Positions 5,877 to 19,567 of a stretch of 64,000 bases of DNA are shown here, one piece after another. Positions within the stretch are counted from its first letter, which is position 1; each line of letters opens with the position of its first letter. The notes below the pieces were generated by a model. That model saw only the letters and a program-made list of their open reading frames with translations, was not told the origin of the DNA and ran no database searches. The position numbers were made by a program, and so were the translations under genes. This DNA is from Oligoflexia bacterium. GTDB lineage: Bacteria > Bdellovibrionota_G > JALEGL01. Where the stretch lies: the NCBI GenBank assembly GCA_035326705.1, contig DAOLES010000002.1, positions 58,307 through 122,306 on the forward strand. The letters are read 5' to 3'.

Positions 5877-6773
5877 TTGACATGTTATGAAAAGGCACAT
5901 AAAGTGCAGCAAGAAAAATATATGCAACTGAATGTTAAAAACGAATACGCTTCCTTAAAGTCAGTAGCCTATTGTTTGGGTCTTTACGTGCCGGTTGCAA
6001 AAAGTTATGTTACCCAAGACCCAGAGTTTCACAAATTTCATTCACTAAAAGAAACCTGGGATATCAATCTCTTAATACAACAGCAAGAAGCATTTTTAGA
6101 GCTTTTACAGTCTTACAATGTAGACTTGATTGAAATTGAAGCAAAAAAAACATTGCCATGGCAGATGTACACGCGTGATGTTGCTTTTGTCATTGGTGAC
6201 AAAATATTTTACAGTCAAAATAGAAAATTTAAAGAGCGCAATGGCGAGTTTGATCAACTGGCAAACAGGATCAATCAATTGTCTATTGATAAAAAGCAAT
6301 GCATAGAAATTGTATCTGGGCAGATTGAAGGTGGTGATGTTATGCCTACGGATGATCAAGTTTTAGTTGGGTTAAGTAGTCGTACATCACAGGAAGCGAT
6401 TGATGAACTTGCACAATATGTTGATGTCAAGGTATTGAATTTGGGTGAAAATATTATGCATTTAGACACACGTTTAATGATTGTATCTAAAGATATAGCC
6501 ATTATTCATCGCTCCAGCTTTAATGAAAAAGACATTGAATACCTTCAAAAAAAATACACCTTAATTGAGGTAAGTGATGAAGAGGCAAAACTGTTGGCGA
6601 CCAATGTTGTGCTTTTAAATCCAGAAACCATTATAGTAGAACAACAACAAAAAAGACTTCAAAATGAATTGAAACAGCATGGCTTTAAAATTGAAAAACT
6701 TAGTTACTCAGAGCCCATCAAATTAGGTGGATCATTTAGATGCACCAGTCTTACTTTATCACGAGAACCCTAG
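5877..6773 (+). CDS. amidinotransferase-superfamily enzyme (DDAH / arginine deiminase-like)
   Basis: 298 aa ending in GGSFRCTSLTL, the C-terminal catalytic-Cys motif of the amidinotransferase/DDAH fold. Immediately follows the nitroreductase gene. Confidence 0.55.
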   Translation: MTCYEKAHKVQQEKYMQLNVKNEYASLKSVAYCLGLYVPVAKSYVTQDPEFHKFHSLKETWDINLLIQQQEAFLELLQSYNVDLIEIEAKKTLPWQMYTRDVAFVIGDKIFYSQNRKFKERNGEFDQLANRINQLSIDKKQCIEIVSGQIEGGDVMPTDDQVLVGLSSRTSQEAIDELAQYVDVKVLNLGENIMHLDTRLMIVSKDIAIIHRSSFNEKDIEYLQKKYTLIEVSDEEAKLLATNVVLLNPETIIVEQQQKRLQNELKQHGFKIEKLSYSEPIKLGGSFRCTSLTLSREP

Positions 6774-6775
6774 TT

Positions 6776-7804
6776 TTATTTTTCAGCGTAAAGATAAGTT
6801 TCAAAATTTTCAGGAAATACACAACTTTTAAGCTGGCCCCCACTTGCATAGGCCACAGCTCGTTCCAGTAATTTTGTTAAGTTTTGATCTAGTTGTTCCA
6901 TGTTTTTTTGAGCTTTAACCTTATAAGAGACCACATAATAAGGAGTGTGGTTTTGTGGGAAAAATAATTTTCTTTCTTCAATATCAAGTTCTATAAAAGT
7001 ATCTGAACCTAGATTTTTTTCCCAATGGCTCAACTCCATACCTGCTCTAATACCTAAGTTTTCAGAATAAGGCATGATATCGGCGTGACAGGTTTTTTCA
7101 AGGGCTTGATTAAAAAACCATGTCTGTTCTGATGAAAGGGGTAGGTTGGAAGATAGTGAAGCAAAAGAAATAAAATTTTTAGCATGCGATCGATAGGTAA
7201 AAAATTGTTGAGGTATGTTAATGGTTTGCATAAAAGAAGGTAGAAAATGACGGATATTATTGTGAGTTACAGATAATTGAAAGTTTTGTAAGTTATTGTC
7301 TTCATACAGACTCAAACCCAGTTCATTTTTCCAGGTGAGGGTGGAGGGGTTAAGACTTAGTAATCTTTGCTGGTATTCTAAAGGTAAAAGGCTAGTGCCT
7401 GAGCTAAATTTGATGGTTGAGCTTAAGTCTAAATGGGGATTGTTTTTTTTCTGAAGAACTCTTACTCTTATGATGATTCCATCAGGGTTGAGTGACGAGT
7501 CTTCTGTATCAATGTAGTAAGCTAGTCCTCTGCGTTTTGGTTGTAAGCTGTGAGCGATCAAAGGCATCAATTGATCCATATGAGTGATAGGTGTTCCATT
7601 GTTTTGACATAATGAACTGGCCGTTTCAACTTGAATATAAGTGTTATTGCTTGTAGCGTTTTTATTCACAATTAAATTTTTTTGACTCAATTGATTATAG
7701 AGTGAAAAAAAATTCTGTGCTGAATTTTGTGCAAAAGAAATCTTAATTGTAAGTAGACACATAACAACACCTACTTTGCGCAATAAACAGTTACGATGAA
7801 TCAT
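6776..7804 (-). CDS. secreted hypothetical protein
   Basis: 342 aa, N-terminal signal peptide, no recognisable catalytic motif. Confidence 0.45.
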   Translation of the reverse strand: MIHRNCLLRKVGVVMCLLTIKISFAQNSAQNFFSLYNQLSQKNLIVNKNATSNNTYIQVETASSLCQNNGTPITHMDQLMPLIAHSLQPKRRGLAYYIDTEDSSLNPDGIIIRVRVLQKKNNPHLDLSSTIKFSSGTSLLPLEYQQRLLSLNPSTLTWKNELGLSLYEDNNLQNFQLSVTHNNIRHFLPSFMQTINIPQQFFTYRSHAKNFISFASLSSNLPLSSEQTWFFNQALEKTCHADIMPYSENLGIRAGMELSHWEKNLGSDTFIELDIEERKLFFPQNHTPYYVVSYKVKAQKNMEQLDQNLTKLLERAVAYASGGQLKSCVFPENFETYLYAEK

Positions 7805-7845
7805 GACATTTTCCCCCTAGTCTTAGTATTATAATTTAGTTAGTA

Positions 7846-9126
7846 TTAATTTTTGATTTGAATAAAATAAGACTTAAATAATTGTGTTCCTTTATCTGAC
7901 TTTCCTGTTTTTGGGTCAAAAATACCGGTAATCCCAAAGTCATTATCATTGATTAAATACAAGGCATCCATAGCAGGAACATATGTAATGCCTTCATATT
8001 TATCAGCAAGGCTGTTCAGTTTATGGTCTTTTAAATCCATCCATAAAGTTTTAGAAAGAGCATATTTTTTCAGCAAATCTTTTTTTGAAAGAGATTCAAG
8101 TTGAGTGCTATTAAATATCATGGCATCATAAGCGTTGGCCAATAAATTTTTATCCGCAGCTATGCTTATTTTGTATATTTTTTTAATGGCGTCATTATCA
8201 TTTTTACCGTCACGTTCAATAAGCAAAAACTCATTTTCATTGAGAGCGGTCATGCCTCCAATTTTATCGGCTTGTTTAACGTCATCTAATAAGTATACAT
8301 ATTGACCCGTGACCTCTCTTTTTTTAAGATCAAACTCTATAATTCTAATAACATCACTTTTCTTTTTTGTAGGAAGCGGACTTTGTAAAACAGCATACAA
8401 TTTATCATTAGCAATGCTGACAGCCTCAAAACCACGATTCATTTTCCGTTCTTTAATGACTTCAGGTAAAACAGCATGAATATGTGCACTTTTATAACCT
8501 GTTCCTTGTGGAACATATTTGTTTAACATTTTTCCTTTTTTATTAAATTCTACGATGGCTGGGCCATATTCATCAACCAACCAAAAATGACCTGCTTGAT
8601 CTATTGCAATCCCCTCTGGGTCTAAACCGTAGGCATTAAGCGTTAAACTTTTACCGACAAGGTCTGTTGGAGGTTCATGTTGATGTTTTTTATCTTTGCT
8701 TGTTGCTAAATTTGGAATACCCGTTAATGGCTGGCCTTGAGGGTCTTGTAATAAAAGTTGTTTATGAATATTCATGATATTTTTTTTGGTATCAAAAACC
8801 AACTGAATGAGGCGCAATTGGTAGTCAGGTAAGAGAAAAGGTCTGCTTTTTTCCGAATTTTTCTCAAAAGCAAAAGGTTCTGCGTTAGGACCACGATCAG
8901 TTAAGGTCCAAAAATAAAGCTTATTTTTTTTCTGATGAGAAAAAGTTAAGCCAGATAAACCTCCAAAATAAACAGTTTCATTGCCTAAAGTGGTCCCTAA
9001 CTTAATGTTTTTAGGGAGTTCTAGTGTTTTAACTTGCGTGTTTTTTGCAAAAGTAAACGAACAAGAAAAACATAGAATAAAACACAAAAAAGGTAATAAT
9101 CTCAGCTTTTTAGTTTTTAAAATCAT
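7846..9126 (-). CDS. secreted hypothetical protein (possibly phytase-like esterase / beta-propeller family)
   Basis: 426 aa, signal peptide. Repeated GxDxEG-like blocks suggest a beta-propeller; family assignment is uncertain. Confidence 0.4.
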   Translation of the reverse strand: MILKTKKLRLLPFLCFILCFSCSFTFAKNTQVKTLELPKNIKLGTTLGNETVYFGGLSGLTFSHQKKNKLYFWTLTDRGPNAEPFAFEKNSEKSRPFLLPDYQLRLIQLVFDTKKNIMNIHKQLLLQDPQGQPLTGIPNLATSKDKKHQHEPPTDLVGKSLTLNAYGLDPEGIAIDQAGHFWLVDEYGPAIVEFNKKGKMLNKYVPQGTGYKSAHIHAVLPEVIKERKMNRGFEAVSIANDKLYAVLQSPLPTKKKSDVIRIIEFDLKKREVTGQYVYLLDDVKQADKIGGMTALNENEFLLIERDGKNDNDAIKKIYKISIAADKNLLANAYDAMIFNSTQLESLSKKDLLKKYALSKTLWMDLKDHKLNSLADKYEGITYVPAMDALYLINDNDFGITGIFDPKTGKSDKGTQLFKSYFIQIKN

Positions 9127-9295: not shown

Positions 9296-9700
9296 ATGGA
9301 AAATATTAAAGCAAAAATTCTTTTAGTGGATGACGATGATTTTTTTCTTGAATATATGCACAGCCGCTTATCGGATGAAGGTTTTGATGTGCAGGTTGCA
9401 TTATCTGTTGATACTGCCTTAGAAATGTTAGAAAGTGATGACTTTGATTTGTGTGTGACAGATTTTAAAATGCCAGTAAAGACGGGTGAAGACTTGTTGA
9501 GAAGTTTAAGAATAGATACCAAGTTAGGACTCAAAGATTTACCGGTGATTGTTTTATCTTGGATCAGTGACCAAGATATTAGAAAACGTTTAGACAGTTA
9601 TGGCCCTAGTGCATTTTTAGAAAAAATGTTGCGTCCGCATCAGATTGCTAAAATCATTGATAATATTTTACAGGAAAGAAGATCTTACTCTTTACACTAA
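9296..9700 (+). CDS. single-domain response regulator (CheY-like receiver)
   Basis: 134 aa. Has LLVDDD acidic pocket, phospho-acceptor Asp in DFKMP, and a conserved T/S and K (VIVLS...K). No output domain. Confidence 0.75.
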   Translation: MENIKAKILLVDDDDFFLEYMHSRLSDEGFDVQVALSVDTALEMLESDDFDLCVTDFKMPVKTGEDLLRSLRIDTKLGLKDLPVIVLSWISDQDIRKRLDSYGPSAFLEKMLRPHQIAKIIDNILQERRSYSLH

Positions 9701-9717
9701 ACAATGCTCAATATTGT

Positions 9718-11151
9718 TTAAAACTTGAAATTGGTTCCTAAATATAAATCATTGACGGTGATTTTATCATTTTCATTAAGACTGTCTTCTTCTTTAAATA
9801 TTTGATATCGAGCGTGCAAAAGATTTTTTTTACTAAAATACCAAAATAAATTTCCGCCAAAACTGTACTCTTGTTCATTTTCTGTGGGTAAGCTGGTTAA
9901 GGTATTGTTTAAATAAACGTCACGTTCAGTTTTGACTCGATTAAAAAAACTTTCCAAGCGCAATTGACCGTCAGAAAAATCTTTACCCAATAAAAAATCA
10001 AATGCTACGTGGGCACTTTTATAATTGTTGATAAAATTAATTTGGGTTCTAAAATCAATGCTTGGCTGAAAAAGAGCATTGTTTTTATAACCTAAAAAAT
10101 AACGACTTCTATTCAGCGCATCAAAACTACGTTTTGTTAACTCTATTCCAGTAAAAATATTTTGTGATTTTAAAAAAGAATAGCTGATTTGATCTCTAAT
10201 TTGTGTGTAATAGGTGTCATTAAAAACATCACCGTTAACGTAGGTGTCAGGCGTAAATTGCCCTTGCCCAGGGATTTGTGAGCTGAGAGAAGCAGCGTAC
10301 TCTATATTTGACCAACGGGTGAAACTTAAGCTATTGTTTAAATGATCTGAAAAAATATAATAAAAATTTAATAGCAATTGATCCAAAGACTTTGGCACAA
10401 AAGAATAGTTGAGTAAGGCGGATAATGTTACCTTGCTATTTGGAATGTAAGTGCCGTGAGTAAAATTATATAAGCGATCCACTTGACCTTGATACAAAAG
10501 CGTATTTAAGGAGCTGCTAAAATTTAAAGTGTCATTTTTATGTTGGTAGTAACTGCCTAAGCTTATAAAATCAGTGCTGATAAACTGATTGTTTTGATTG
10601 CTTCCAATAAAGCCAAGGCTGGTTCTTGGATCTTGTCCAAGACCAGAGAAAAATCCAAGCTGACCCTCGTTGTTAAGATTTAGTATCAGTCTTGCACCAT
10701 CAAAACGCATACCACCGCTTTGAAAAACGATTTGCCTTCCCAGCCATAGGTCATGGCCTGAAAAAAAATTTTTATACTCTAATGATAATTCTGTAATGTC
10801 ATAACGATTTTTTTGATTGTAAGCTAAGGTGTAGTTGGTTTGATCTAAGTTAAAACGACTTTTACCAACAAAACGAAAGTTTGTTTGTTTTGAATCAAAG
10901 CTACTTTTTTGCTGATACAGTCTAACATTAAGCATGAGTAAACGATAACGGTCCTGTAAATAATCTTGACCAACTCCGTCAGTTTGTATTGCATTGTCTT
11001 GGTCTAATGTGTTTTGCGTAACTGACCAGTATCCTAAATTAAGATTTCCATTGAACTGCGTTTCAGATTGAGCATGAGTCAATGAAAGTGTCACCAGGAA
11101 ATAAAAAAGAACAAAAAAAAGTATATTCTGTTTTATTATTTTACAACTCAT
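9718..11151 (-). CDS. outer-membrane beta-barrel protein (putative porin of a porin-cytochrome complex)
   Basis: ~477 aa from MSCKIIK (the ORF track extends 6 codons further, to 11169). Signal peptide; alternating amphipathic beta-strand pattern rich in Y/F/N/S/T/G; C-terminal ...GTNFKF aromatic terminus. Immediately follows the 27-haem cytochrome gene. Confidence 0.55.
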   Translation of the reverse strand: MSCKIIKQNILFFVLFYFLVTLSLTHAQSETQFNGNLNLGYWSVTQNTLDQDNAIQTDGVGQDYLQDRYRLLMLNVRLYQQKSSFDSKQTNFRFVGKSRFNLDQTNYTLAYNQKNRYDITELSLEYKNFFSGHDLWLGRQIVFQSGGMRFDGARLILNLNNEGQLGFFSGLGQDPRTSLGFIGSNQNNQFISTDFISLGSYYQHKNDTLNFSSSLNTLLYQGQVDRLYNFTHGTYIPNSKVTLSALLNYSFVPKSLDQLLLNFYYIFSDHLNNSLSFTRWSNIEYAASLSSQIPGQGQFTPDTYVNGDVFNDTYYTQIRDQISYSFLKSQNIFTGIELTKRSFDALNRSRYFLGYKNNALFQPSIDFRTQINFINNYKSAHVAFDFLLGKDFSDGQLRLESFFNRVKTERDVYLNNTLTSLPTENEQEYSFGGNLFWYFSKKNLLHARYQIFKEEDSLNENDKITVNDLYLGTNFKF

Positions 11152-13184
11152 AGTTTGGAAGGTCTCCATCCATAGGTTCTATGGCAGTCCTTGCAGTTGG
11201 TGTTGCCACCAGCATGTTGCGGAATAATAACTGGCGAAGCAAAGTCTTTTAAATGACAAAAAGAACATTCATTGGGTAAGCCACCAAAAACACGATTTAC
11301 ATGGCATTGTTCACAAGAAAGAAAACGGTGGGCACCAGACAATTCAAAGCCGGTTTGAGCATGTCTAAACTGTGTGGGTAACCAAGTGTTTTGCCCATGA
11401 CAATCCTGACAACGTGTTGACAGGCTATTCATATGCGGATCTTGGTGACAGCTTTGGCATTGTGGTTTTGCAGACCTGATGGCCTGTTTGGGGCCGTGAC
11501 AGACTAAGCAGTTGAGTTGATTGTGAGCCCCTTTAAGTTCATATTCACCAAAATCATGGAAGTTGTTTTTCATGGCAAAGGTTGTGCTGTTGTGACAACG
11601 TTCACAGTTTTGTCCAAATGAGTTGTTATGAACATCATTGTGACATTCAGAACAACGTTTAAGACCAAGCTTGTATTTAAAATTTTGGTGGCATTGATTA
11701 CAATTGAGATATTTATGTTTGCCATCTAATTTAAAGTCAGAATTTTTATTATGATCAAAATTAATGTCATTGAAACGGGTTGGTGTATGACAATTTTCAC
11801 ATTGTTGTCCAAGAGCACCTTGGTGAAAGTCATTATGGCAAGATTTGCAATTTGTGGATAAGGGTCTAAATTTTCCCTGTTCATGACAGCTTTCGCAATT
11901 GACATATTTGTGTACGCCTTCTAGTTTAAACTGTGATTGCGTGTTGTGATCAAATTGCATTTCTGAAAAGCCAGCCGTACTATGGCAATTTGAACAAGCC
12001 TGTACACCAAATTGGTTTTTATGAATATCTTGATGACATGCATTGCATTTGGGTGATGTGCTTAGCCAACGGTACTTTCTATTTTGGTGACATTTTTCAC
12101 ATGCAACAACAGTGTGTTTTCCTGTAAGTTGATAGCGAGAATCTTTGTTGTGCAGAAAAGATAAAATTTGCCATCCTTCAGTTAAATGACAGTCATTGCA
12201 TTGTTTAACTTTCCAATTGATTTGAAACTCTTGACCATGCGGATTATTGTGACAATCACTGCATTGATTAAAATTTTTTATTTTACCAATAGTGTTGCCA
12301 TGACAGTTGTTACAAGTCACACTTCTATGTTGGCCCGTTAAAGGGAAACGGGTTTTTTGATGGTCAAAATCTTTAAAAGAAGCTTCAGTGCTGTTTAAGC
12401 TGCTTCCAGCTTTCCAGGAATCTGTACTATGACATTTTTGACAGTCAGAACCAAAGCTTCCCTTGTGAGGGTCACTATGACAGTTTGTGCAGCTTTTATA
12501 TCTTAGGGGGCTCCAAAGTTTTTTAGTGTGACAGCTATAGCATTGAACCTTTTGATGTGCGCCAGTGAGCGGAAAGTTTGTTTCCCGGTTATGATTAAAG
12601 CGTAGATGTTTAATTAGGCTAGTAAAATTATAAGAGTGGTGACAATCTTGGCAGCGTTTAAATCTTGGGTTTTTGCTTCTATGAACATCTTTGTGACAGC
12701 TTGAACAGTTGGATGAGGCGGCTAGATAGCTGGTTTTTTTTGTGGCTTTACCGCTAATCGCATGTTTGCGTTTTTGAGTGTGACATTGTTTGCATTTAAC
12801 GTCTTTGTGTTTTCCAGTGAGAGACCATCCAGTTTGTGAGTGACTAAATTGAAGACGTTCTAAACCCAAAAGTTCATAATCAAGGCCTTTATGTTCATTG
12901 TGACATTGATAACACTGAGCAGTTTGAACAGCGTGGTAACCAGAGTTGTTTTTAATTTTATTGGCAATATCCTTGTGGCAATCTAAGCATTTTTTATTGG
13001 GCAGGCCTTGAGCGGTTGTGTGACAAAGAGTGCAGTTCTTTACGCCAGATATTTCTTGGTGGGCTTTAGATAATGCGCCTGGGCTGATCCAAGTGTTAAA
13101 TTGGGTAAAACCAAGTTTGGGATAAAATAACAGTATCCAGCAAAAAAGATAAAGAGCATTAAAATTTTTGTTCTTAATTAGCAA
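11148..13184 (-). CDS. multihaem c-type cytochrome (27 CxxCH motifs)
   Basis: 678 aa with signal peptide. I counted 27 CxxCH haem-binding motifs in repeating tri-haem-like units with conserved distal His (c7/c3-like modules). Confidence 0.9.
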   Translation of the reverse strand: MLIKNKNFNALYLFCWILLFYPKLGFTQFNTWISPGALSKAHQEISGVKNCTLCHTTAQGLPNKKCLDCHKDIANKIKNNSGYHAVQTAQCYQCHNEHKGLDYELLGLERLQFSHSQTGWSLTGKHKDVKCKQCHTQKRKHAISGKATKKTSYLAASSNCSSCHKDVHRSKNPRFKRCQDCHHSYNFTSLIKHLRFNHNRETNFPLTGAHQKVQCYSCHTKKLWSPLRYKSCTNCHSDPHKGSFGSDCQKCHSTDSWKAGSSLNSTEASFKDFDHQKTRFPLTGQHRSVTCNNCHGNTIGKIKNFNQCSDCHNNPHGQEFQINWKVKQCNDCHLTEGWQILSFLHNKDSRYQLTGKHTVVACEKCHQNRKYRWLSTSPKCNACHQDIHKNQFGVQACSNCHSTAGFSEMQFDHNTQSQFKLEGVHKYVNCESCHEQGKFRPLSTNCKSCHNDFHQGALGQQCENCHTPTRFNDINFDHNKNSDFKLDGKHKYLNCNQCHQNFKYKLGLKRCSECHNDVHNNSFGQNCERCHNSTTFAMKNNFHDFGEYELKGAHNQLNCLVCHGPKQAIRSAKPQCQSCHQDPHMNSLSTRCQDCHGQNTWLPTQFRHAQTGFELSGAHRFLSCEQCHVNRVFGGLPNECSFCHLKDFASPVIIPQHAGGNTNCKDCHRTYGWRPSKL

Positions 13185-13251
13185 AATCTGAGTTCTATTT
13201 TAGGGGGATATTTGTGGGATAGAAAGTAAAAACACGATTTAGCCCATAAAA

Positions 13252-13848
13252 TTACTTTGCTTGAACTTTATCTTTTTTTACGTTTTTAGGTTTTTTATCT
13301 TTTGCAAAATCAAAATAATTCCAGTCTTGAGCATTGTGACATTCATCACAAGGCTTTTGATACTCTGGTTTTTTATGCGGGTTAGGGTGACAAGAGCTAC
13401 ACTGACTAGAGTTTTTAAGATAAGTAGTTAAATTGGTTTTTTTGCCAGTAATGGCATTGACACGCTTATCTGTGTGACACTCTTCACATTTTAAACGTTT
13501 ATGTTTGCCTTCTAAAGGCCAGCCAGTATCCTCATGTTTAAAACCAATTCGTTTTAAATCTCTTAAGTCATGTTTTTTACCACGGTGCTCACCATGACAT
13601 TGGTAACAGCGCTTGTCATCATTGCGGTAATGGTAACCACTCTTAGACTCTATTTTTTCTGCTATGTCAGTATGGCATTTTAAACAGGCTTTTTTACGAT
13701 TACCCGTATGACATTTGGTGCATTTAGAGAAGCCATCAAGATATTTAAAGTGCGCACTGCTTAAATCCCCCGGTGAAAAAAACTGGGGAAACACAGTATT
13801 GAGCATGGCGATGCTTAAAGCAAAGCTATAAATAAATAATTTACGCAC
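13252..13848 (-). CDS. hexahaem c-type cytochrome
   Basis: 198 aa, signal peptide, 6 CxxCH motifs. N-terminal ~150 aa are clearly paralogous to the N-terminus of the 27-haem protein; Lys-rich C-terminus. Confidence 0.85.
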   Translation of the reverse strand: MRKLFIYSFALSIAMLNTVFPQFFSPGDLSSAHFKYLDGFSKCTKCHTGNRKKACLKCHTDIAEKIESKSGYHYRNDDKRCYQCHGEHRGKKHDLRDLKRIGFKHEDTGWPLEGKHKRLKCEECHTDKRVNAITGKKTNLTTYLKNSSQCSSCHPNPHKKPEYQKPCDECHNAQDWNYFDFAKDKKPKNVKKDKVQAK

Positions 13849-13996
13849 GATTCTCTAATTATAACAAGTTTATCAGATGATAGCTAGGTAATTGTTATTA
13901 AAGGATTTTTTGTTCAGTTTCAGTTCAGCTTTGGTATGTTTAACAAAATAGTTTTTTTAAAATTATAGAGGTGGGATGTAAAGTTAGGGTTATTTA

Positions 13997-15979
13997 TCAA
14001 GTCCAACCAGTAAAAAAGAATAAGTTGTATATGACGTGAATAATGGCAAAAATACCCATGACATAGGCCAGCGGTTTATGCACGTATTGCCATTTAACAA
14101 ACAAGCGTGAGGCAAATTCTAAAAAGCGAACATTGCGTGTCAGTAAAACTTTGCGGTGCACCATGCTTCTAAATGTGCTGTACTGGCGTTTGTAACTTTC
14201 CATTTCTTTGGGCGTAAAATGTTTGATTCGCATCAGCAACCAATAAGAACGAATACCAGACTTGAACAATTGAAAAATACTTGGGTCTTCTAACTCTTCA
14301 AACTTGGTTTCTTCCATGATTTTATCGATGGTTCGTCTACTGCGGGTCCCTTTTTCAAAAATAGCATCTAATTTATAAGCCAATTCACGGTCTTGTTCCT
14401 GAATTTGTCTAAATTTAAGTTCGGTTGTTGCCACTGTCCTGGGAATGACTTGGTAAAGAAAACGACCAAACATACCAGTAATCATTACAAACAATAAGGA
14501 AACCATGCCCAAGGTTCCCCAACCCATCTCAAATTCAAAACCGGTATGAAATAAAACTAGAATGGTACCCATAAAACCGGCGAAGTTATGGAAATCCAAC
14601 CAGAGAGGTTTTGAGCCAAAACGTCCAAGCAAACGAGGAAAAGCCTTGCGCAGAGGATAAATCATGGCCATTACAATTAAAGAAAAACCAACGTTGCCAA
14701 TAAATAAGCACAACTGTGAGCCTTTATTAAAATTGAGGGGAATATTGGGGTCTATAAAACCCAGCCTTTGGGCTTTTAGTAAAAGTGAAAACTGAGCATA
14801 AAACTGTTCTTGCAAGGCAAGAAACTCAAAGCATAACCAAGTGATGACAACAAAAGCTGTTAGAAAATAAATTTTTTGTAAAAACTTAACCAAGCCTGAG
14901 CGTTCGTCCAGTTCTTGACTGTTCACTTGTGTACTTTGATTGACGCTAAACAGGGTTGGGTTTTCTAAAAGTTCATTGGCACTTAATTCTATAATTGCAC
15001 CGGTTGGACAATGCGATATACATGCAAGATCACTGTAACCATTACAATGATTGCATTTGTCAGCAATAAATTTAGGTGGACGTTTTTGTCCAGGGTGATT
15101 TAAAAAACGAGAAAAACGTTCATCTTTTTGATCAACTTTATGAATGGTAATTGCACCATATTGACAGGCTTTGGCACAAGATTGACAGCCAATGCAATCA
15201 TCCTTAATTTCCACTTCTCCGCTATCTGGGTTAAAAATAACGCTTTCAACTGGACAAGAAGGAATGCACGTTGGATAAAAACAAGTTAAACAACTTTGCG
15301 CAATGTCCATAACACCAAACTTGGCATAACCACGTTCTATTCTTTGAAAACCATGCCGGTCCTCACAAGCTTCATAACATGTATCACACTCAATGCATTT
15401 GTTCATTTGCGTGATTTTAATTCTGGACGCTTGGGTTAAAGCGGTATCAACTAAAAAATCTAAGACTGAGCGTGAATAACTGTCTTCACAGTAAATTCTA
15501 TTTCTGTAGTCAATGCGATCACTGATTTGTTTGATACGATTTTCAAAAACTTGGCTGCTGCGGGCAAAGCTCTTCAAGTCTTCTTTACGAATAATTAAAA
15601 TTTCGGCATCGGTGATAGCTGCAACTTTACTGGCGGTTAAGTTGTTCCAAGTCATGGGCTTATCCACAAAAAACTCGCCCTTGCGGAGAAAGTTAATGGG
15701 AATTTTACGGGCATTTTCGTCAAAACCAATAATTTTAACCTGACCTTTGGCGATAAAAAAGAAATGAGCAAAGCTTTCAGTGTCACTTTCAAATTCTAAG
15801 ATGTCTTCATTGGCTAGGGCGCTGGCTCTTCTTACTTTGCCTTGCAATTGTTTTAATGTAAAATTGGGGATATCACGAAAAAGTTTAATGATTTTTAAAT
15901 CTTCAAGTGATGTAACAGGAAAGCTAGGGGGTCCTTTTTTCTGCTTATTGCGTTTATTGTAGATAATTCCATTAGACAT
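13997..15979 (-). CDS. cyclic-nucleotide-binding domain / 4x[4Fe-4S] polyferredoxin / integral-membrane fusion protein
   Basis: 660 aa. N-terminal Crp-like cNMP-binding domain; four Cys clusters (CIECDTCYEAC, CLTCFYPTCIPSCP, CIGCQSCAKAC, CNHC...CISHCP); C-terminal ~5-6 TM helices with conserved His. Confidence 0.7.
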   Translation of the reverse strand: MSNGIIYNKRNKQKKGPPSFPVTSLEDLKIIKLFRDIPNFTLKQLQGKVRRASALANEDILEFESDTESFAHFFFIAKGQVKIIGFDENARKIPINFLRKGEFFVDKPMTWNNLTASKVAAITDAEILIIRKEDLKSFARSSQVFENRIKQISDRIDYRNRIYCEDSYSRSVLDFLVDTALTQASRIKITQMNKCIECDTCYEACEDRHGFQRIERGYAKFGVMDIAQSCLTCFYPTCIPSCPVESVIFNPDSGEVEIKDDCIGCQSCAKACQYGAITIHKVDQKDERFSRFLNHPGQKRPPKFIADKCNHCNGYSDLACISHCPTGAIIELSANELLENPTLFSVNQSTQVNSQELDERSGLVKFLQKIYFLTAFVVITWLCFEFLALQEQFYAQFSLLLKAQRLGFIDPNIPLNFNKGSQLCLFIGNVGFSLIVMAMIYPLRKAFPRLLGRFGSKPLWLDFHNFAGFMGTILVLFHTGFEFEMGWGTLGMVSLLFVMITGMFGRFLYQVIPRTVATTELKFRQIQEQDRELAYKLDAIFEKGTRSRRTIDKIMEETKFEELEDPSIFQLFKSGIRSYWLLMRIKHFTPKEMESYKRQYSTFRSMVHRKVLLTRNVRFLEFASRLFVKWQYVHKPLAYVMGIFAIIHVIYNLFFFTGWT

Positions 15980-16055
15980 AGCTTTTAGTAGCTCTATTTT
16001 AACGGTTTAAATCTTGTTTGTCTTTTAAAAATCTAAATAAAGTGTCTTTTGTTGT

Positions 16056-16094
16056 GTAAGTTGCATAAACTTACCCAGAATAACTTGAGTTATT
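16056..16094. promoter_or_regulatory. two adjacent perfect palindromes in the divergent promoter region (candidate operator sites)
   Basis: GTAAGTT-N5-AACTTAC (16056-16074) and AATAACT-TG-AGTTATT (16079-16094), between the cytochrome operon (minus) and the ABC transporter (plus). Confidence 0.3.
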
Positions 16095-16147
16095 GAAGAG
16101 TTTTGATAAAAATTTGAGTCATAAAATCTTTGGCATAAAAAAATGAG

Positions 16148-16867
16148 GTGCACATGATTGAAGCGCAACATATTCATAAAGTATATGGTGATATAACAGC
16201 AGTAAAAGATATTTCTTTTAGGGTTAAAAAAGGTGAAATTTTAGGCTTTTTAGGAGCCAATGGCGCCGGCAAGACAACAACCATGCGAATTATGACTGGT
16301 TCATTGCAACCCAGTTCTGGAACTGCCTTGATTGCAGGCTATGATATTTTAAAAGAGCCATTAGAAGTTAAGCGTCGTATTGGATATTTACCGGAGTCGC
16401 CACCAGTCTATTTTGATTTTACGGTAGAAGCATTTTTAAAATTTGTTGCTAAAATTAGAGAAATCCCAAGTAACTTGCAAAAACAACAAATAGAATGGGC
16501 TATTGACAAGTGTGGTTTAAAACATGTTGCCAAGCGTATGATTGGTAATTTATCTAAAGGCTATAAACAAAGGGTGGGCTTAGCGCAGGCAATTGTGCAT
16601 AAGCCTGATGTATTAATTTTGGATGAACCAACGGTGGGTCTTGACCCAACTCAAATTCGCGAAATACGCGCTTTAATACAAACTTTATCGGAAGAACACA
16701 CCATTATATTATCCACGCATATTCTGCCAGAAGTTAATATGATTTGTGATCGAGCAGTTTTTGTCCATCAAGGTCAAATCGCCCTTGAAGGATCCATTAA
16801 AGAATTAACCCAAACAAAAAGTTTAGAAGAAGTATTTGTCGATGTCATGCTCACACAAGCAAGTTAA
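16148..16867 (+). CDS. ABC transporter ATP-binding protein
   Basis: Walker A GANGAGKTT, signature LSKGYKQRV, Walker B LILDEPT, H-loop. GTG start at 16148 or ATG at 16154. Confidence 0.85.
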   Translation: MHMIEAQHIHKVYGDITAVKDISFRVKKGEILGFLGANGAGKTTTMRIMTGSLQPSSGTALIAGYDILKEPLEVKRRIGYLPESPPVYFDFTVEAFLKFVAKIREIPSNLQKQQIEWAIDKCGLKHVAKRMIGNLSKGYKQRVGLAQAIVHKPDVLILDEPTVGLDPTQIREIRALIQTLSEEHTIILSTHILPEVNMICDRAVFVHQGQIALEGSIKELTQTKSLEEVFVDVMLTQAS

Positions 16868-16911
16868 GCTTCTATGGGGTTAGGAATAGCAATATATTAA
16901 AGAGGTAAAGC

Positions 16912-17703
16912 ATGAAAAAAATATGGACCATTATAGAAAAAGAATTAAAGCATTATTTTTATTCACCTATTGCTTATGTGGTGATGGTGGTGTTTTTGTC
17001 ATTGACCGGATTTTTCTTTTATGTGGGGCTGAGTAGGTTCAGCATGATGTATGAGAATTATAAAAACTTAGCACAGATGACACAAAACCCACAGTACTTA
17101 GAAAGTTTAAACCTTAATGAAATTGTTATTGCCCCCAGTTTATTTAACATGGCTTTTATTTTGTTATTTTTAATTCCTTTGCTGATGATGAGAAGCTTTG
17201 CTGAGGAAAAGAGTAAAAAAACAGATGAACTGTTAAAAACTGCTCCACTAAGCACAACACATATTGTTTGGGGTAAATACCTATCAGCATTTTTGTTTGT
17301 GCTGTGTATGATTTTACCCACTGTAATTTATCAGATTTTTTTATTTGCTAGCTTGGACAATCCTCCTGAGTTAGGTCCAGTGATAACAGGATATGTAAGT
17401 CTTATTCTTTACACAGCAACAGCTTTAGCAATAGGTATGTTTGCAAGTTCATTAACTGAAAATCAAATTGTTGCTGCGGTCATGACCTTTGTGGTTTTGC
17501 TATTGCTATTTGTTATCAGTTCTATTGGTTTAAAAGAAGGCAGTATTTTATACAGTATGGTTCAATATATTTCTATCCCGGAACATATGAAGGCAATGTT
17601 AAGAGGTGTAGTGGATAGCCGGGATGTCGTTTATTTTTTAAGTTTATCTGGTTTGTTTGTATTTTTAACCCATCGTTCTTTAGATGTACAAGGTTGGAGA
17701 TAA
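16912..17703 (+). CDS. ABC-2 type permease (GldF-like)
   Basis: 263 aa with ~6 TM helices, directly downstream of the ATPase. Confidence 0.6.
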   Translation: MKKIWTIIEKELKHYFYSPIAYVVMVVFLSLTGFFFYVGLSRFSMMYENYKNLAQMTQNPQYLESLNLNEIVIAPSLFNMAFILLFLIPLLMMRSFAEEKSKKTDELLKTAPLSTTHIVWGKYLSAFLFVLCMILPTVIYQIFLFASLDNPPELGPVITGYVSLILYTATALAIGMFASSLTENQIVAAVMTFVVLLLLFVISSIGLKEGSILYSMVQYISIPEHMKAMLRGVVDSRDVVYFLSLSGLFVFLTHRSLDVQGWR

Positions 17704-17706
17704 AAA

Positions 17707-19350
17707 ATGAATACATTATCATTGATGAGTGGTGTTACAGGCTTTGTTTTATTGCTTGGCGCAATTTTGGGTTATGGAATTACCAAGGACAGCAGCAATT
17801 GGTTTTTTAGAAGCCTGATGATTTTTTCTGTGTTGTTTTTGGTTTATTACTTGGTCATGAATATTAAATATTTAATGAAAAGTCCTGGGGGGATAAAAAA
17901 TGCATTTAGCGACAAAAAAAATCAAGGAAGATTGGGGAATGCTATTTTTATCCTCTTGGTTGTTTGTTGTTTGGCTGTTGTTAATGTTATTTCGACTAAA
18001 ACCATGTTTTGGAAAAAAGATTTTACCCAAAATGAAATTAACACCTTGTCTGATCAAACGCTAAGTACCTTAAAACAATTAGATAAACCGATTAAAATAC
18101 AAGTCTTTATGTTTGAAAATAACCAGCTAAAACCTGGGTTAAAAAATTTGTTGCAGTACTACCAAGATGCAAGTGATCAAGTAAAGGTAGAGTTCAAAGA
18201 TCCAGATGTTGCAAAGTTAGATGCTCAAAAAATTTCTGCGCAAGACGGAGACATTTTAATTGAATATGGTGAGCAGCAGCATATCATGCAAGGTAGTACA
18301 GAACAGGATATCACCCAAGCCATTTTAAAAGTAACGCGTAATGGGGAAACAATGGTGTGTTTTACTGAAGGTCATGGTGAGTTAAAGTTTGAAGGAGACC
18401 CACAAGATCCAAGAAGTTTAAGTTTTATTAAACCTGGCTTAAGCAATGAGGGTTTTAATGCTCGTACACTGAGTAATCTTTTGCCCAAAATAGATGAAGC
18501 TTGTTCGATAGTTATTATTGCTGGTCCACAAGTAGCGTTTACAGCCAATGAAGTCATTAGTCTCAATGAATATTTATTGTCTGGAGGTAAAGTACAGTTG
18601 CTGCTTGACCCCAATATCAGTACAGTTGTGGGTCAAAAAAATAAAGTTCGTTTGGTAGACAATGGTTTAAAAGACTTTTTACACTCTTGGGGAGTAGTTT
18701 TAGGAGATAATGTTATTTTAGAAAAGCGCTTGTCTTTACAAGGCATGCAAATTACCACTGAGCTTGTGGTTGCTAATTATGGACAGCATCCAATTGTTGA
18801 GCCACTTAAGCAAGGGATGAATGGTAACTTGAACACTGAATTTGACCAAGTGAGATCAGTGAATAAAGCACCTGGTTTTGAAGGAACCGTTGTTGAGTTA
18901 GCCTTTACCTCACCTGGAGAAAACAGCTGGGCCCAGTCAGATTTGCAAGCACTATTTATTGATAAAAAACCAGTCATTGAGGCAACAGATCAAGTGGGTA
19001 AAGTTAGTATTGGTCTTGTGTCTGAAAAAGATTTGGAAATAAAAGTAGAAGGGGACAATGACCCTGAAATCAAGCAAGCCCAACTGGTGGTATGGGGAGA
19101 TAGTGATTTTATTTCAAATGCTATGGTAGGTCAAAACCGATACAATTATGATTTGTTTATCAATGCTTTAAACTTTTTAAGAGGAGAAGTAGAGCAAATA
19201 ACAATTAGACCCAAACTGATTAAAAGCTCAGCCATAGAGCTATCCGCCACACAATCCATAGTCATTTTTTATTTATCTATTATCATATTGCCAATGCTAG
19301 TACTTTTATTTGGATTAAATTTATGGCTGTATAGAAAGAGATTAGGTTAA
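17707..19350 (+). CDS. GldG-like ABC-transporter-associated protein
   Basis: 547 aa, N- and C-terminal TM anchors around a large periplasmic domain. Follows the ABC-2 permease as in gldA/F/G-type loci. Confidence 0.55.
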   Translation: MNTLSLMSGVTGFVLLLGAILGYGITKDSSNWFFRSLMIFSVLFLVYYLVMNIKYLMKSPGGIKNAFSDKKNQGRLGNAIFILLVVCCLAVVNVISTKTMFWKKDFTQNEINTLSDQTLSTLKQLDKPIKIQVFMFENNQLKPGLKNLLQYYQDASDQVKVEFKDPDVAKLDAQKISAQDGDILIEYGEQQHIMQGSTEQDITQAILKVTRNGETMVCFTEGHGELKFEGDPQDPRSLSFIKPGLSNEGFNARTLSNLLPKIDEACSIVIIAGPQVAFTANEVISLNEYLLSGGKVQLLLDPNISTVVGQKNKVRLVDNGLKDFLHSWGVVLGDNVILEKRLSLQGMQITTELVVANYGQHPIVEPLKQGMNGNLNTEFDQVRSVNKAPGFEGTVVELAFTSPGENSWAQSDLQALFIDKKPVIEATDQVGKVSIGLVSEKDLEIKVEGDNDPEIKQAQLVVWGDSDFISNAMVGQNRYNYDLFINALNFLRGEVEQITIRPKLIKSSAIELSATQSIVIFYLSIIILPMLVLLFGLNLWLYRKRLG

Positions 19351-19519
19351 TATGCGAAATCAGGAACTGATTGAGCACACGGGGATAAAAAAACACAAAC
19401 GACGATTTTTGTTTTTTAAGGGGGCGTGAGCCCCCTTGAAAGAGGGAGCGAAGCGGGAGCCAATGCTAGTACTTTTATTTGGGTTAAATTTATGGCTGTA
19501 TAGAAAGAGATTGGGATAG
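19290..19519 (+). mobile_element. short two-hairpin element flanked by a 61-bp direct duplication of the upstream gene's 3' end
   Basis: Direct repeats 19290-19350 and 19459-19519 differ at 4 positions, all synonymous in the gene's frame. Between them lies a 108-bp insert containing a conserved ~87-nt core (19372-19458) with two hairpins. Confidence 0.5.
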
Positions 19520-19567
19520 ATGACCCATATTATTTGCCTGGTTCATATATGTATGGAGGATTAATCC

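Follow-up and report, generated by a model that had tools for sequence, protein, structure and literature searches.

The four genes at 9718-15979 of the window (the whole 64-kb stretch of DNA analyzed here) are likely, with a probability of roughly 0.6, to encode a porin-cytochrome conduit for electrons across the envelope, whose logic is closest to that of the predicted PCC3 and PCC4 systems and of which it would be a candidate, unstudied variant. This interpretation, first offered in a preliminary description of the locus, is supported by a conserved triad of genes, an inner-membrane protein with the PCC3/PCC4 signature and the model of a 22-stranded barrel whose gene is coupled to that of a multihaem cytochrome.

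Gene order and its conservation

The open reading frames define four co-directional minus-strand genes, as had been described, which code for a fused FeS/TM protein, a hexahaem cytochrome, a 27-haem cytochrome and a predicted barrel protein (Table 1), the last ORF reaching 483 aa (9718-11169) if an alternative ATG at 11169 is used. A count of CxxCH motifs (six in the 198-aa protein, 27 in the 678-aa protein and none in the 660-aa and 483-aa proteins) agrees with the haem numbers given earlier. The first two intergenic gaps of 148 and 67 nt are likewise borne out, but the last, previously put at 0 nt, is in fact a 4-nt ATGA overlap between the start codon of the barrel gene (ATG, 11151-11149) and the stop codon of the 27-haem gene (TGA, 11150-11148). 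A GGAGA sequence sits 11 nt upstream of the ATG at 11151, and a start at 11169 would enlarge the overlap to 22 nt. The ATGA overlap indicates translational coupling of the two genes.

The flanks are as formerly reported, with a divergent ABC transporter at 16148-20995 and a convergent single-domain response regulator at 9296-9700. The latter is not a conserved part of the cluster, and the divergent arrangement of the FeS/TM gene and the ABC transporter is kept in loci L001-L017. The region between these two contains a weak sigma-70-like match at 16024-15996 (minus strand), the scan for such sites being no better than background (30 sites vs 22 +/- 4.6 expected).

Table 1. Features of the cluster and their positions in the window
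Feature	Position	Strand	Basis
FeS/TM gene, 660 aa	13997..15979	-	ORF; Pfam and NCBIfam domains; alignment-derived invariant residues
CNB-like domain, aa 26-155	15515..15904	-	PF00027, PDB profile matches
Four-cluster [4Fe-4S] ferredoxin, aa 189-336	14972..15415	-	16 invariant Cys
Predicted 5-TM dihaem cytochrome-b domain, aa 361-660	14000..14899	-	Invariant His, hydropathy, published signature
Hexahaem cytochrome gene, 198 aa	13252..13848	-	Six CxxCH motifs
27-haem cytochrome gene, 678 aa	11148..13184	-	27 CxxCH; PF14522
Hexahaem head of 27-haem protein, aa 30-186	12627..13097	-	Paralogy to free hexahaem
Seven tandem trihaem repeats, aa 187-664, ~65 aa each	11193..12626	-	Repeat listing
ATGA stop/start overlap, 27-haem gene/barrel gene	11148..11151	-	Read from sequence
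Predicted barrel gene, ATG at 11151, 477 aa	9718..11151	-	ORF; AlphaFold2
Divergent intergenic region, 168 nt, FeS/TM gene to ABC operon	15980..16147	.	Presumed promoter region

The core triad of FeS/TM, 27-haem and barrel genes occurs in a dozen or so Bdellovibrionota MAGs as well as three other lineages. The genes follow one another in this order in L001-L005, L007-L011, L013, L015 and L017; recurrence of the same order in at least 13 independent loci implies that the arrangement is not due to chance. Overlaps of a few nucleotides at the cytochrome/barrel junction recur in L001, L005, L008, L010, L013 and L017. Outside Bdellovibrionota the order of FeS/TM, cytochrome and barrel genes is found in L021 (27 haems) and L023 (30 haems); L020 has a 45-haem cytochrome ahead of the barrel, with a stand-alone membrane protein and an FeS-flavoprotein encoded alongside. 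In some loci the FeS/TM gene is separated from the cytochrome genes, which counts against the conduit: an opposite-strand pilin-like gene (L001), an OsmC gene (L002) or gaps of 1.2-1.6 kb (L007, L009, L010) intervene, and L006 has an FeS/TM gene and a hexahaem but lacks neighboring genes for a 27-haem protein and a barrel. Remote homologues of the FeS/TM protein (25% identity) adjoin large TPR proteins without cytochromes.

The fused ferredoxin-membrane protein

The 660-aa protein combines a CNB-like domain, a ferredoxin with four [4Fe-4S] clusters and a five-TM membrane domain. The fusion had been proposed before and is recovered by Pfam as cNMP_binding and several Fer4 families, with DUF4405 and Ferric_reduct below threshold. 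Identity within the family is 47-60% across the Bdellovibrionota MAGs. Profile matches of the CNB-like domain include PF00027 (37.2 bits vs a cut-off of 27.5) and, in the PDB, the CNB domains of PKG and PKA. The 'RSA' of the phosphate-binding cassette of PKG2 (5bv6) aligns with 'TAS' in this domain, the family consensus at the position is 'VATK', and the phosphate-binding Arg is not conserved. Without this canonical residue, the domain is likely to serve in regulation or docking. The 16 Cys of the ferredoxin are all invariant and fall into four groups (C195/198/201/205, C230/233/238/242, C262/265/268/272 and C309/312/320/324). The best PDB sequence matches of this region are HycB3/HycB4 of the HDCR filament, ArrB and HycB, and NCBIfam yields sub-threshold matches of the DmsB/HydN/NrfC type. 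No signal or Tat motif is present in the FeS/TM protein, and the ferredoxin domain is hence predicted to be cytoplasmic.

The membrane domain carries the signature of the PCC3/PCC4 inner-membrane proteins, i.e. five TM with WX3HX13H on TM3 and TM5 and SGXXG on TM4 (PMC5566968). The two His motifs are W460-x3-H464-x13-H478 on TM3 and W630-x3-H634-x13-H648 on TM5, TM4 bears TGMFG (501-505) in the window protein and SGxFG in relatives, and a basic cytoplasmic loop of 115 aa joins TM4 to TM5. The four His are invariant in 19/19 aligned sequences at identities down to 24%, and hydropathy with positive-inside topology places both His pairs in register, with the N-terminus inside. The signature points to a dihaem cytochrome b. 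Every match of the family to DUF4405 (17/19 members) and Ferric_reduct (15/19) is sub-threshold; the domain is homologous to stand-alone membrane proteins of 281-291 aa (HMM E 4e-34; BLASTP E 2e-20 and 7e-19). The cytoplasmic chain of four [4Fe-4S] clusters would feed this five-helix domain, in which the HX13H pairs of the parallel TM3 and TM5 would hold two b haems, one near each face, such that clusters and haems together would form a wire across the inner membrane.

These features are reminiscent of the ferric-reductase superfamily (NOX, FRE, YedZ/MsrQ, STEAP; PMC3591440), in which two HX13H motifs on TM3/TM5 hold a stacked pair of b haems, electrons enter through a cytoplasmic module fused to the membrane domain and flow from the cytoplasm to the outside is likewise proposed. 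However, a four-cluster ferredoxin lies N-terminal here in place of a C-terminal FAD/NADPH domain, there are five TM rather than six, and the Pfam Ferric_reduct and DUF4405 models remain under their gathering thresholds. The Pfam/NCBIfam domain content of the 660-aa protein includes no flavin or NAD(P) domain.

The multihaem cytochromes and the predicted outer-membrane barrel

Both cytochromes carry ordinary signal peptides without a lipobox, and the cluster encodes no lipoprotein cytochrome. The hexahaem protein, which ends in a Lys-rich tail, shares 46% identity with residues 13-187 of the 27-haem protein and is, as judged from this similarity, a paralogue of its N-terminal head. A separate hexahaem gene is found only in the window, L001, L002 and L006; it is an accessory and not a conserved part of the cluster.

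The 27-haem protein has 25 aa per haem and is matched by PF14522 (Cytochrome_C7) over nine stretches (E 4.6e-35). The haem spacing is 15, 25, 40, 29, 18 in its head and roughly 33/16/16 in the trihaem repeats, the last of which (aa 596-664) is the most conserved outside the haem motifs (0.59 vs 0.36-0.47 in the other units). In the alignment of 11 orthologues (38-87% identity) 27/27 haem motifs match column for column and 26 non-motif His are invariant, with no conserved Met, a pattern that identifies it as a bis-His c7-type trihaem polymer. Models for TIGR04257 ('nanowire_3heme', 17 bits vs a cut-off of 40) and HmcA (16 bits vs 400) score low. GSU1996 and GSU2210 offer precedents for linear c7 polymers (PMC10138318): like GSU1996, GSU0592 (12 haems) and GSU2210, which also has 27 haems, the window protein would be a soluble periplasmic polypeptide of tandem trihaem c7-like domains. 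It differs in being all bis-His, each domain of GSU1996 having one His-Met haem, and in a gene that is closely coupled to that of a barrel and adjoins a transmembrane FeS/haem-b module. If extended like GSU1996 (12 haems, 12 nm), the hexahaem head and seven repeats would measure ~25 nm, long enough to reach across the periplasm, and a haem number so strictly conserved at 27 agrees with a constraint on length.

Neither Pfam nor NCBIfam has a family that matches the fourth protein (9718-11151). The protein carries a signal peptide and ends in ...NFKF, and AlphaFold2, run on a 14-sequence alignment, gives an all-beta model with 22 long strands (pLDDT 79.9, pTM 0.70), in which the 477 aa are almost wholly barrel, without a plug domain. 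Strand residues alternate between a more hydrophobic and a polar face (mean Kyte-Doolittle +0.63 vs -1.19). The model thus upholds the earlier assignment as an outer-membrane beta-barrel of ~480 aa, which remains a prediction. The barrel is unrelated to MtrB and founds a small family (13 representatives among 1.84 billion proteins) found only beside cytochromes, its gene directly following a multihaem cytochrome gene in every locus examined, often with an ATGA overlap. By analogy with MtrA in MtrB, we infer that the 27-haem cytochrome may be threaded through the barrel, one end, possibly the most conserved C-terminal unit, lying in or docked on it and exposed at the surface.

The closest folds to the barrel model are, however, substrate channels (Occ/OprD porins, chitoporin and AlgE), and with such generic matches it could be an ordinary diffusion channel. 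This would suit a redox system confined to the periplasm, with the 27-haem protein, charged by the FeS/haem-b protein, as an electron store (capacitor) or a reductase of soluble acceptors and the barrel admitting substrates, as has been proposed for Geobacter ExtI. The signal peptides without lipobox, the barrel-less L006 and the view of the Geobacter c7 polymers (GSU1996 family) as periplasmic capacitors (PMC10138318) are all in line with it. Yet we consider it unlikely: a barrel found solely downstream of, and coupled to, very large multihaem cytochromes at 19-78% identity would be unusual as a nutrient porin, 22 strands without a plug exceed the 16-18 typical of specific porins, and a haem number fixed at 27 over wide divergence suggests a constraint on length and not on capacity. 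The barrel might also be conceived as a usher- or secretin-like pore that exports the 27-haem cytochrome to the surface as an extracellular wire. This appears highly improbable, as usher folds match no better than generic porins (TM-scores about 0.4), the protein lacks a plug and the usher domains at either terminus, a trihaem domain already folded around its haems would be bulky for transit, and the cluster has no conserved partner of the chaperone or ATPase type.

Relation to known conduits and the probable direction of electron flow

PCC3 is itself predicted only, with no experimental characterization in He et al. 2017 (PMC5566968) or the Gallionellaceae survey PMC9900912, and its porin and cytochromes were compared with the window proteins by published description only. 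On this basis, both systems have, besides the membrane signature, a periplasmic cytochrome of great length assembled from repeats (about 22-39 aa per haem in PCC3) and a barrel gene adjoining the cytochrome gene, and for both a span of the whole envelope is proposed; the PCC3 cytochromes of 21, 24 or 27 haems are thought to span the periplasm (PMC9900912). In contrast to PCC3, the window cluster has no second (extracellular) cytochrome, its membrane protein is fused to the ferredoxin and CNB-like domains (660 aa vs about 300 aa), and its barrel has 22 predicted strands against up to 42 predicted transmembrane regions in PCC3 porins. In PCC4 subgroup II an FeS-cluster gene lies immediately upstream of that for the WX3HX13H membrane protein, and in Oceanospirillum beijerinckii the two are annotated as a single fused gene (PMC5566968). 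This subgroup also resembles the window cluster in possessing a porin gene and exclusively periplasmic cytochromes, though these are three small proteins (4, 5 and 10 haems) accompanied by other redox proteins, rather than a single 27-haem polymer that a hexahaem may accompany; for the window protein, a cytoplasmic position of the FeS domain is predicted from the absent signal/Tat motif. The pairing of a periplasmic multihaem cytochrome gene with an outer-membrane barrel gene is shared with MtrAB, MtoAB and PioAB (Mtr structure 6R2Q), the working model for the window cluster likewise being a cytochrome inserted in a barrel, and the want of a surface lipoprotein cytochrome is shared with MtoAB and PioAB. 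A further parallel lies in the Hmc and Tmc complexes of Desulfovibrio, which bring together a multihaem cytochrome c in the periplasm, a cytochrome b in the membrane and an FeS protein in the cytoplasm and, with no catalytic subunit, connect the redox pools of the two compartments, but are multi-subunit, have HdrD-like FeS proteins and no outer-membrane barrel.

From thermodynamics and the neighbors of homologues only, we infer that electrons would run outward: a low-potential pool in the cytoplasm (ferredoxin, or NAD(P)H acting through a separate reductase) would supply them, and an acceptor outside the cell would take them up. Genes for stand-alone homologues of the membrane domain share an operon with one for a membrane-anchored FeS/NAD(P)-binding flavoprotein, which recalls the logic of NOX and FRE and argues for this direction. 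On pEMTOL02 of Emticicia oligotrophica, for example, genes for CcsA, a 281-aa membrane-protein homologue (E 4e-34), an FeS/NAD(P)-binding protein, a 23-haem homologue (33% identity) and a 40-haem cytochrome follow one another. Such partners point to a cytoplasmic donor and not to the quinone pool from which electrons had earlier been derived, although a quinone site in the haem-b domain is possible. The same components could instead work inward, oxidizing Fe(II), Mn(II), a mineral or a cathode and passing electrons from the barrel-bound cytochrome through the b haems to a quinone or FeS chain. Fe(II) oxidizers yielded the first PCC3 and PCC4 clusters, which were modeled as inward conduits (PMC5566968), PCC3 is common in Sideroxydans (PMC9900912), MtoAB and PioAB also dispense with an extracellular lipoprotein cytochrome, and inward transfer through a dihaem b would generate a membrane potential, as in the Fdn/Nar redox loops of established bioenergetics. 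We nevertheless regard uptake as quite improbable, given the flavoprotein partners, the strongly uphill reduction of NAD(P)+ or low-potential FeS clusters by Fe(II), the outward flow in FRD-type dihaem domains with cytoplasmic donors in NOX and FRE (PMC3591440), and the lack of signs of lithoautotrophy in the 64 kb of the window or the relatives' flanks.

Export itself builds no membrane potential, and the role of an outward conduit may thus be disposal of electrons or extracellular reduction rather than classical quinol-linked respiration; the acceptors could then be Fe(III), Mn(IV), humics and possibly O2. PCC3 occurs in Alpha-, Beta- or Gammaproteobacteria, whereas the hosts here are Bdellovibrionota. 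All triad hosts are uncultured MAGs, the phylum being known for aerobic predation, and the source organism of the window is an uncultured relative of the predatory Bdellovibrio.

Organization and conservation of the cluster

The locus appears to define a minimal three-protein system resembling PCC3 and PCC4, two types of porin-cytochrome cluster that are themselves predictions, with a fused entry module combining a cyclic-nucleotide-binding-like (CNB-like) domain, an FeS domain and a cytochrome b-type domain, a giant multihaem cytochrome, and a barrel representing a new, predicted 22-strand family. The ORFs and their CxxCH counts (see table) agree with the four co-directional minus-strand genes and the cofactor content claimed in the preliminary description, as do the intergenic distances of 148 and 67 nt. 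The third distance, given there as 0 nt, is actually a 4-nt overlap, in which the stop codon of the 27-haem cytochrome gene and the start codon of the barrel gene share an ATGA at 11148-11151 that is preceded by GGAGA. The form of this junction indicates that translation of the barrel gene is coupled to that of the cytochrome gene. The window has a G+C content of about 35%, and exact protein matches assign it to an uncultured 'Oligoflexia bacterium' MAG of the phylum Bdellovibrionota. Searches with Rfam recovered no RNA family within the window, and promoter and terminator scans across it yielded only background-level signals, which are hence uninformative with respect to operon structure.

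Features of the cluster and of its surroundings, in window coordinates
Feature	Position	Strand	Content
Secreted phytase-like esterase and 342-aa secreted protein	6776-9126	-	PF13449, 426 aa (esterase); no family (342-aa protein)
Response regulator	9296-9700	+	Single-domain, CheY/DivK-like
Barrel	9718-11169	-	ORF, 483 aa; 477 aa if ATG at 11151 is used; 0 CxxCH
27-haem cytochrome	11148-13184	-	ORF, 678 aa; 27 CxxCH
C-terminal tail of 27-haem cytochrome	11151-11192	-	aa 665-678
Hexahaem cytochrome	13252-13848	-	ORF, 198 aa; 6 CxxCH
FeS/TM protein	13997-15979	-	ORF, 660 aa; 0 CxxCH
ABC operon	16148-20995	+	ATPase, ABC-2 permease, GldG-like ABC_transp_aux/DUF7088, DUF4340
DUF6531/RHS-repeat protein	26424-28109	-	
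368-aa protein	28094-29200	-	No family; overlaps the RHS-repeat gene
LprI domain protein	29312-30313	+	Lysozyme-inhibitor-like
Sigma-54 activator	33480-35309	+	FHA, weak GGDEF-like stretch, AAA+, HTH_8

Many Bdellovibrionota MAGs contain members of the FeS/TM family, and the 12 loci recovered when 185,579 species genomes were scanned with the FeS/TM alignment all come from MAGs. Source habitats of the MAGs include activated sludge and groundwater. The order FeS/TM gene, optional hexahaem gene, 27-haem gene and barrel gene is retained in the related loci L001-L005, L007-L011, L013, L015 and L017, in most of which the cytochrome/barrel junction is overlapping or only a few nt wide. The comparison with related genomes proposed in the preliminary description thus recovered the same order repeatedly, and its persistence across 19-87% identity rules out a chance adjacency of these genes. 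Related arrangements are also present at the three most distant barrel homologues, which lie outside Bdellovibrionota. In this order, L021 (34% G+C) encodes a CNB-FeS-TM protein, a 27-haem cytochrome and a barrel, L023 (67% G+C) an FeS-TM protein, a 30-haem cytochrome and a barrel, and L020 (52% G+C) a 45-haem cytochrome followed by a barrel, with a standalone 291-aa membrane protein bearing the same motifs and then a membrane-anchored FeS and Pyr_redox_2 protein encoded on the other strand.

Other features vary between loci. A separate hexahaem gene is restricted to the window, L001, L002 and L006, and most loci possess a single large cytochrome only. The contiguity of the FeS/TM and cytochrome genes is broken by an opposite-strand pilin-like gene in L001 and by an OsmC gene in L002, and the two are separated by gaps of more than 1 kb in L007, L009 and L010. 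In L001, the closest relative (78-92% identity), the product of the intervening gene (6304-7059, minus strand) has 251 aa and an N-terminus resembling type IV pilins (FTLIELMITIAIIGLLA); the gene sits between the FeS/TM and hexahaem genes, where the window has only the 148-nt gap. L006 has an FeS/TM gene and a hexahaem gene with neither a 27-haem nor a barrel gene nearby, carboxyltransferase genes coming next; its outer part has either been lost or is encoded elsewhere. The L006 hexahaem (9987-10727, 246 aa) carries a long Pro/Lys-rich C-terminal tail, and the hexahaems of the window and L002 likewise end in basic C-terminal tails.

A tblastn search of plasmids revealed a related version of the cluster in a cultured member of the Bacteroidota, Emticicia oligotrophica DSM 17448, on its 100-kb plasmid pEMTOL02 (NC_018749.1, 78197-90781); tblastn with the barrel gave no plasmid match. 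The genes on pEMTOL02 encode, in order, a fused CcsA, a 281-aa membrane protein with the WX3HX13H motif, an FeS/NAD(P)-binding protein anchored in the membrane, two cytochromes with 23 and 40 haems, a secreted hypothetical protein of 538 aa and a lipoprotein-like protein with a GW domain. The 281-aa protein is recovered with the membrane domain of the window (HMM E-value 4e-34), the FeS/NAD(P)-binding protein is 50% identical to its counterpart in L020, and the 23-haem cytochrome is a homologue of the 27-haem protein with 33% identity. The 538-aa secreted protein showed no match to the barrel family. For the inner-membrane and cytochrome parts of the system, the plasmid cluster offers a possible experimental model.

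Domain architectures of the putative conduit components

The claim that the entry module is a fusion of FeS and membrane domains was upheld, as several Pfam 4Fe-4S families and five TM segments (by hydropathy) map to a single polypeptide. Signal and twin-arginine motifs are absent from this protein, and its first TM segment follows 365 residues. The best PDB sequence matches of the region spanning aa 189-336 are HycB3 (E-value 5.9e-19) and HycB4 of the HDCR filament, ArrB and HycB; Fer4_11 (PF13247) is detected below threshold in 18 of the 19 family members. An alignment of these 19 homologues, down to 24% identity, contains 16 invariant cysteines in four groups, indicating a four-cluster ferredoxin pattern, and this 16-Cys, four-group ligation is also that of the DmsB/NrfC/HycB ferredoxins. 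Placing the N-terminus inside puts the basic loops at aa 447-460 and 514-628 (24 K/R) in the cytoplasm. TM3 and TM5 each bear a WX3HX13H motif (W460-H464-H478 and W630-H634-H648), in which both tryptophans and all four histidines are invariant in the 19 sequences. As the two helices run parallel in the same direction, an inner b haem can be held by H464/H634 and an outer one by H478/H648. TM4 has an [ST]GxxG motif, which is TGMFG at 501-505 in the window and SGxFG in the consensus of its relatives, with G502 and G505 invariant; the corresponding stretch is SGLLG in L021, SGMVG in L023, SGIVG in L020 and SGVVG in Emticicia. These conserved features describe a chain of four FeS clusters, predicted to be cytoplasmic, in fusion with a membrane domain of the dihaem-b type.

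The membrane domain is homologous to the standalone 281-291-aa membrane proteins of L020 and Emticicia, which share its signature, and a search with the TM domain against PDB sequences recovered no match. The C-terminal part of the window's protein scores 23.2 with DUF4405 (PF14358; gathering score 26.7) and 17.5 with Ferric_reduct (PF01794; gathering score 28), such sub-threshold matches being found in 17/19 and 15/19 family members respectively; thus, the Pfam gathering scores of the clan uniting ferric reductases and two-haem cytochromes b are not reached. The N-terminal region matches cNMP_binding (PF00027) with 37 bits, above the Pfam cut-off. However, in contrast to typical cyclic-nucleotide-binding domains it lacks the arginine of the 'R-[ST]-A' cassette: in a sequence alignment the phosphate-binding 'RSA' of PKG2 corresponds to 'TAS' in the window and 'VATK' in the family consensus. 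Given this missing cassette arginine, cyclic-nucleotide binding by the CNB-like domain is doubtful. Two distant FeS/dihaem-b homologues (P0048 and P0045, in L018 and L019; about 700 aa, 25% identity) have no cNMP_binding model in their Pfam hit lists. Each of their genes shares 4 nt with the end of a gene for a 1107-1185-aa TPR protein, in genomes rich in Ser/Thr kinases and with no cytochrome c nearby. From this context, use of the membrane module apparently extends to other periplasmic partners.

In the 27-haem protein, which has 25 aa per haem, a hexahaem head (aa 30-186) precedes seven trihaem repeats of about 65 aa, and the free hexahaem is a paralogue of this head (46% identical). Cytochrome_C7 (PF14522) matches nine stretches of the protein (E-value 4.6e-35), and the pattern of haem spacing repeats every three haems. 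All 27 motifs occupy shared columns in an alignment of 11 orthologues with 38-87% identity. The protein has 26 invariant histidines outside the motifs for its 27 haems and three methionines, none of which is conserved, implying that essentially all haems are bis-His ligated. Inspection of both cytochromes and their orthologues revealed type I signal peptides ending before Q (...AFA|Q, ...VYA|Q) and no L-x-x-C lipobox at the N-termini, the two features whose prediction the preliminary description had proposed. The protein is best described as a predicted soluble 27-haem bis-His polymer. Haem numbers across the compared loci are 24, 27, 30 and 45, each divisible by three, the exceptions being 23 in the truncated L009 gene and 23 in the Emticicia homologue. 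The counts of L009 (23) and L017 (24) are probably assembly or pseudogene artefacts and not variation of the clade, as the L009 cytochrome gene lacks both of its ends and the FeS/TM gene of L017 is broken up into three ORFs. Conservation is highest in the last trihaem unit, whose identity outside the motifs is 0.59 vs 0.36-0.47 in the other units. Immediately after the last haem, the C-terminal tail displays a CH-[RFY]-T-[YF]-G-[WF]-R-P-x-[KR] motif, which is kept in the Bdellovibrionota orthologues, differs in L021, L023 and L020, and may be a contact or recognition element.

The barrel protein and its relatives constitute a small and divergent family. A word-indexed search, profile included, found only two or three homologues, and it took HMMER, run exhaustively against 1.84 billion representatives, to recover the 13 proteins detected at E<1e-3. 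Neither the barrel nor any of these relatives matched Pfam, NCBIfam or PDB sequences, and their alignment lacks any conserved stretch of 7-10 columns; all 13 have a signal peptide and an aromatic or hydrophobic last residue. Membership in the MtrB/PioB family (PF11854, about 26 strands) was considered and rejected. An AF2 model built with 14 sequences has 22 long strands (pLDDT 79.9, pTM 0.70), whose residues alternate between a more hydrophobic and a polar face, and the protein is accordingly modelled as a 22-strand barrel. As judged from gene order, the family occurs only beside giant cytochromes, which thus provide the sole known genomic context of a newly defined small barrel family.

Relationship to known and predicted conduits and the proposed direction of electron flow

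The membrane signature and the giant cytochrome of PCC3, together with the FeS arrangement of PCC4 subgroup II, suggest that the locus works like a porin-cytochrome conduit. He et al. 2017 likened the inner-membrane protein of PCC3 and PCC4 to the ferric-reductase domain of NOX/FRE (PMC5566968); its five TM segments, the WX3HX13H motifs on TM3 and TM5 and the SGXXG motif on TM4 are all matched here. In PCC4 subgroup II an FeS gene lies directly upstream of that for the membrane protein, the two being one fused gene in the annotation of one genome (PMC5566968), and the ferredoxin at aa 189-336 corresponds to it as an N-terminal fusion. The periplasmic cytochromes of PCC3 have 21-27 haems, a repeat structure and 22-39 aa per haem (PMC5566968, PMC9900912), a haem density that the 27-haem protein shares. 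Those of the Gallionellaceae, with 21, 24 or 27 haems, were suggested to span the periplasm (PMC9900912). However, PCC4 has three periplasmic cytochromes with 4, 5 and 10 haems, as against 6 and 27 here, and PCC3 combines extracellular and periplasmic multihaem cytochromes, whereas the present locus has no extracellular one, its hexahaem being a small paralogue without a lipobox. Likewise, the surface lipoprotein multihaem cytochrome of the Geobacter Pcc systems (OmaB-OmbB-OmcB) has no counterpart in this locus. The system may be the simplest version of its kind, as it comprises three proteins, of which one is a cytochrome, and lacks a surface cytochrome.

MtrAB, MtoAB and PioAB differ in their barrel family and also in their decahaem MtrA/DmsE cytochrome, for which TIGR03508 scores 24.2 bits against a cut-off of 192.2. 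Tandem trihaem c7 domains are shared with the Geobacter nanowire cytochromes, among which GSU2210 has 27 haems and GSU1996 arranges 12 linearly over 12 nm (PMC10138318); unlike these, with one His-Met haem per trihaem domain, the 27-haem protein has no His-Met haems. It scores 17.2 bits with TIGR04257 (nanowire_3heme; cut-off 40) and is therefore not a curated member of the GSU1996-type family, and a phmmer search against the PDB gave no match, including to the GSU1996 structure 3OV0. Of the profiles compared, Cytochrome_C7 is thus matched, while the MtrB/PioB, MtrA/DmsE and curated nanowire models are not. The haem count that had been called unusually large stands, but is not unique in view of GSU2210 and the 21, 24 or 27 haems of PCC3. 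A reductase-type system for nitrite, sulfite or DMSO, the first two having been named earlier as alternatives, was rejected: NrfH, NapB, HmcA and DmsE are recovered only far below threshold, none of the four proteins has CxxCK or spaced variants of the haem motif, and no catalytic subunit is encoded nearby.

To our knowledge, PCC3 and PCC4 have not advanced beyond bioinformatic prediction since 2017, and the porin-cytochrome conduits with a solved structure or demonstrated function are essentially of the Mtr type. The open-access and bioRxiv literature yielded no such cluster from Bdellovibrionota, the extracellular electron-transfer genes found for this phylum being only MtrAB-like and from magnetotactic members (PMC13200544). 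The present locus extends the PCC3/PCC4-like class to Bdellovibrionota.

These architectures suggest a continuous path for electrons, which would lead from the cytoplasm through the FeS clusters, the two b haems and the 27 c haems and reach the surface by way of the barrel. At about 1 nm per haem, by analogy with GSU1996, the cytochrome could span the periplasm, with one of its ends inside the barrel in the manner of MtrA in MtrB. If unplugged, a barrel of 22 strands is expected to have a lumen of a few nanometres, as in the barrels of TonB-dependent receptors. The invariance of the 27 haems permits a direct test of the idea that the protein acts as a ruler of the periplasm.

An outward flow of electrons is favoured, because FeS/NAD(P)-binding flavoproteins accompany the standalone homologues of the membrane protein and because the reduction of NAD(P)+ or low-potential FeS centers by Fe(II) would be strongly uphill. 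Alternatively, electrons may flow inward, as proposed for PCC3 and PCC4, all the more so if a quinone site is present in the haem-b domain. With outward flow, export through a dihaem b domain would dissipate the membrane potential and not build it, so that the physiological role may lie in redox balancing or in reduction outside the cell and not in respiration that conserves energy. The fused entry module and the FeS/NAD(P)-flavoproteins of its relatives make it testable whether some conduits are fed by a cytoplasmic redox pool and not by quinol. A more specific version, which we consider unlikely, is a quinone-independent NOX-like 'through-wire', in which the FeS chain, the two b haems and a periplasm-spanning 27-haem ruler with one end lodged in the 22-strand barrel would directly connect the low-potential redox pool of the cytoplasm to the surface, gated by the CNB-like domain in Bdellovibrionota, passing electrons without energy conservation to external targets such as minerals, oxygen (yielding ROS) or the surface of prey.

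Flanking genes

A GldA/F/G-like ABC operon with DUF4340, transcribed divergently from the FeS/TM gene, adjoins the latter in every Bdellovibrionota locus examined and is absent from this position in L021 and L023. This adjacency could reflect a functional link through the shared 168-nt control region or a conserved backbone order; as ClpB is likewise syntenic, it may be plain backbone order. On the other side, the response regulator is convergent with the barrel gene, with 17 nt between their ends, and its best NCBIfam model is the DVU0259 family, below the cut-off. It was considered as a component of the system and is probably not part of it, as it is conserved only in L001. Just downstream of it lie the genes for the phytase-like esterase and the 342-aa protein, which are also syntenic only with L001. 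Further away, the DUF6531/RHS-repeat protein, the overlapping 368-aa protein and the LprI domain protein encoded beside them may form a toxin/immunity-type locus, and a sigma-54 activator displays an unusual N-terminal architecture.
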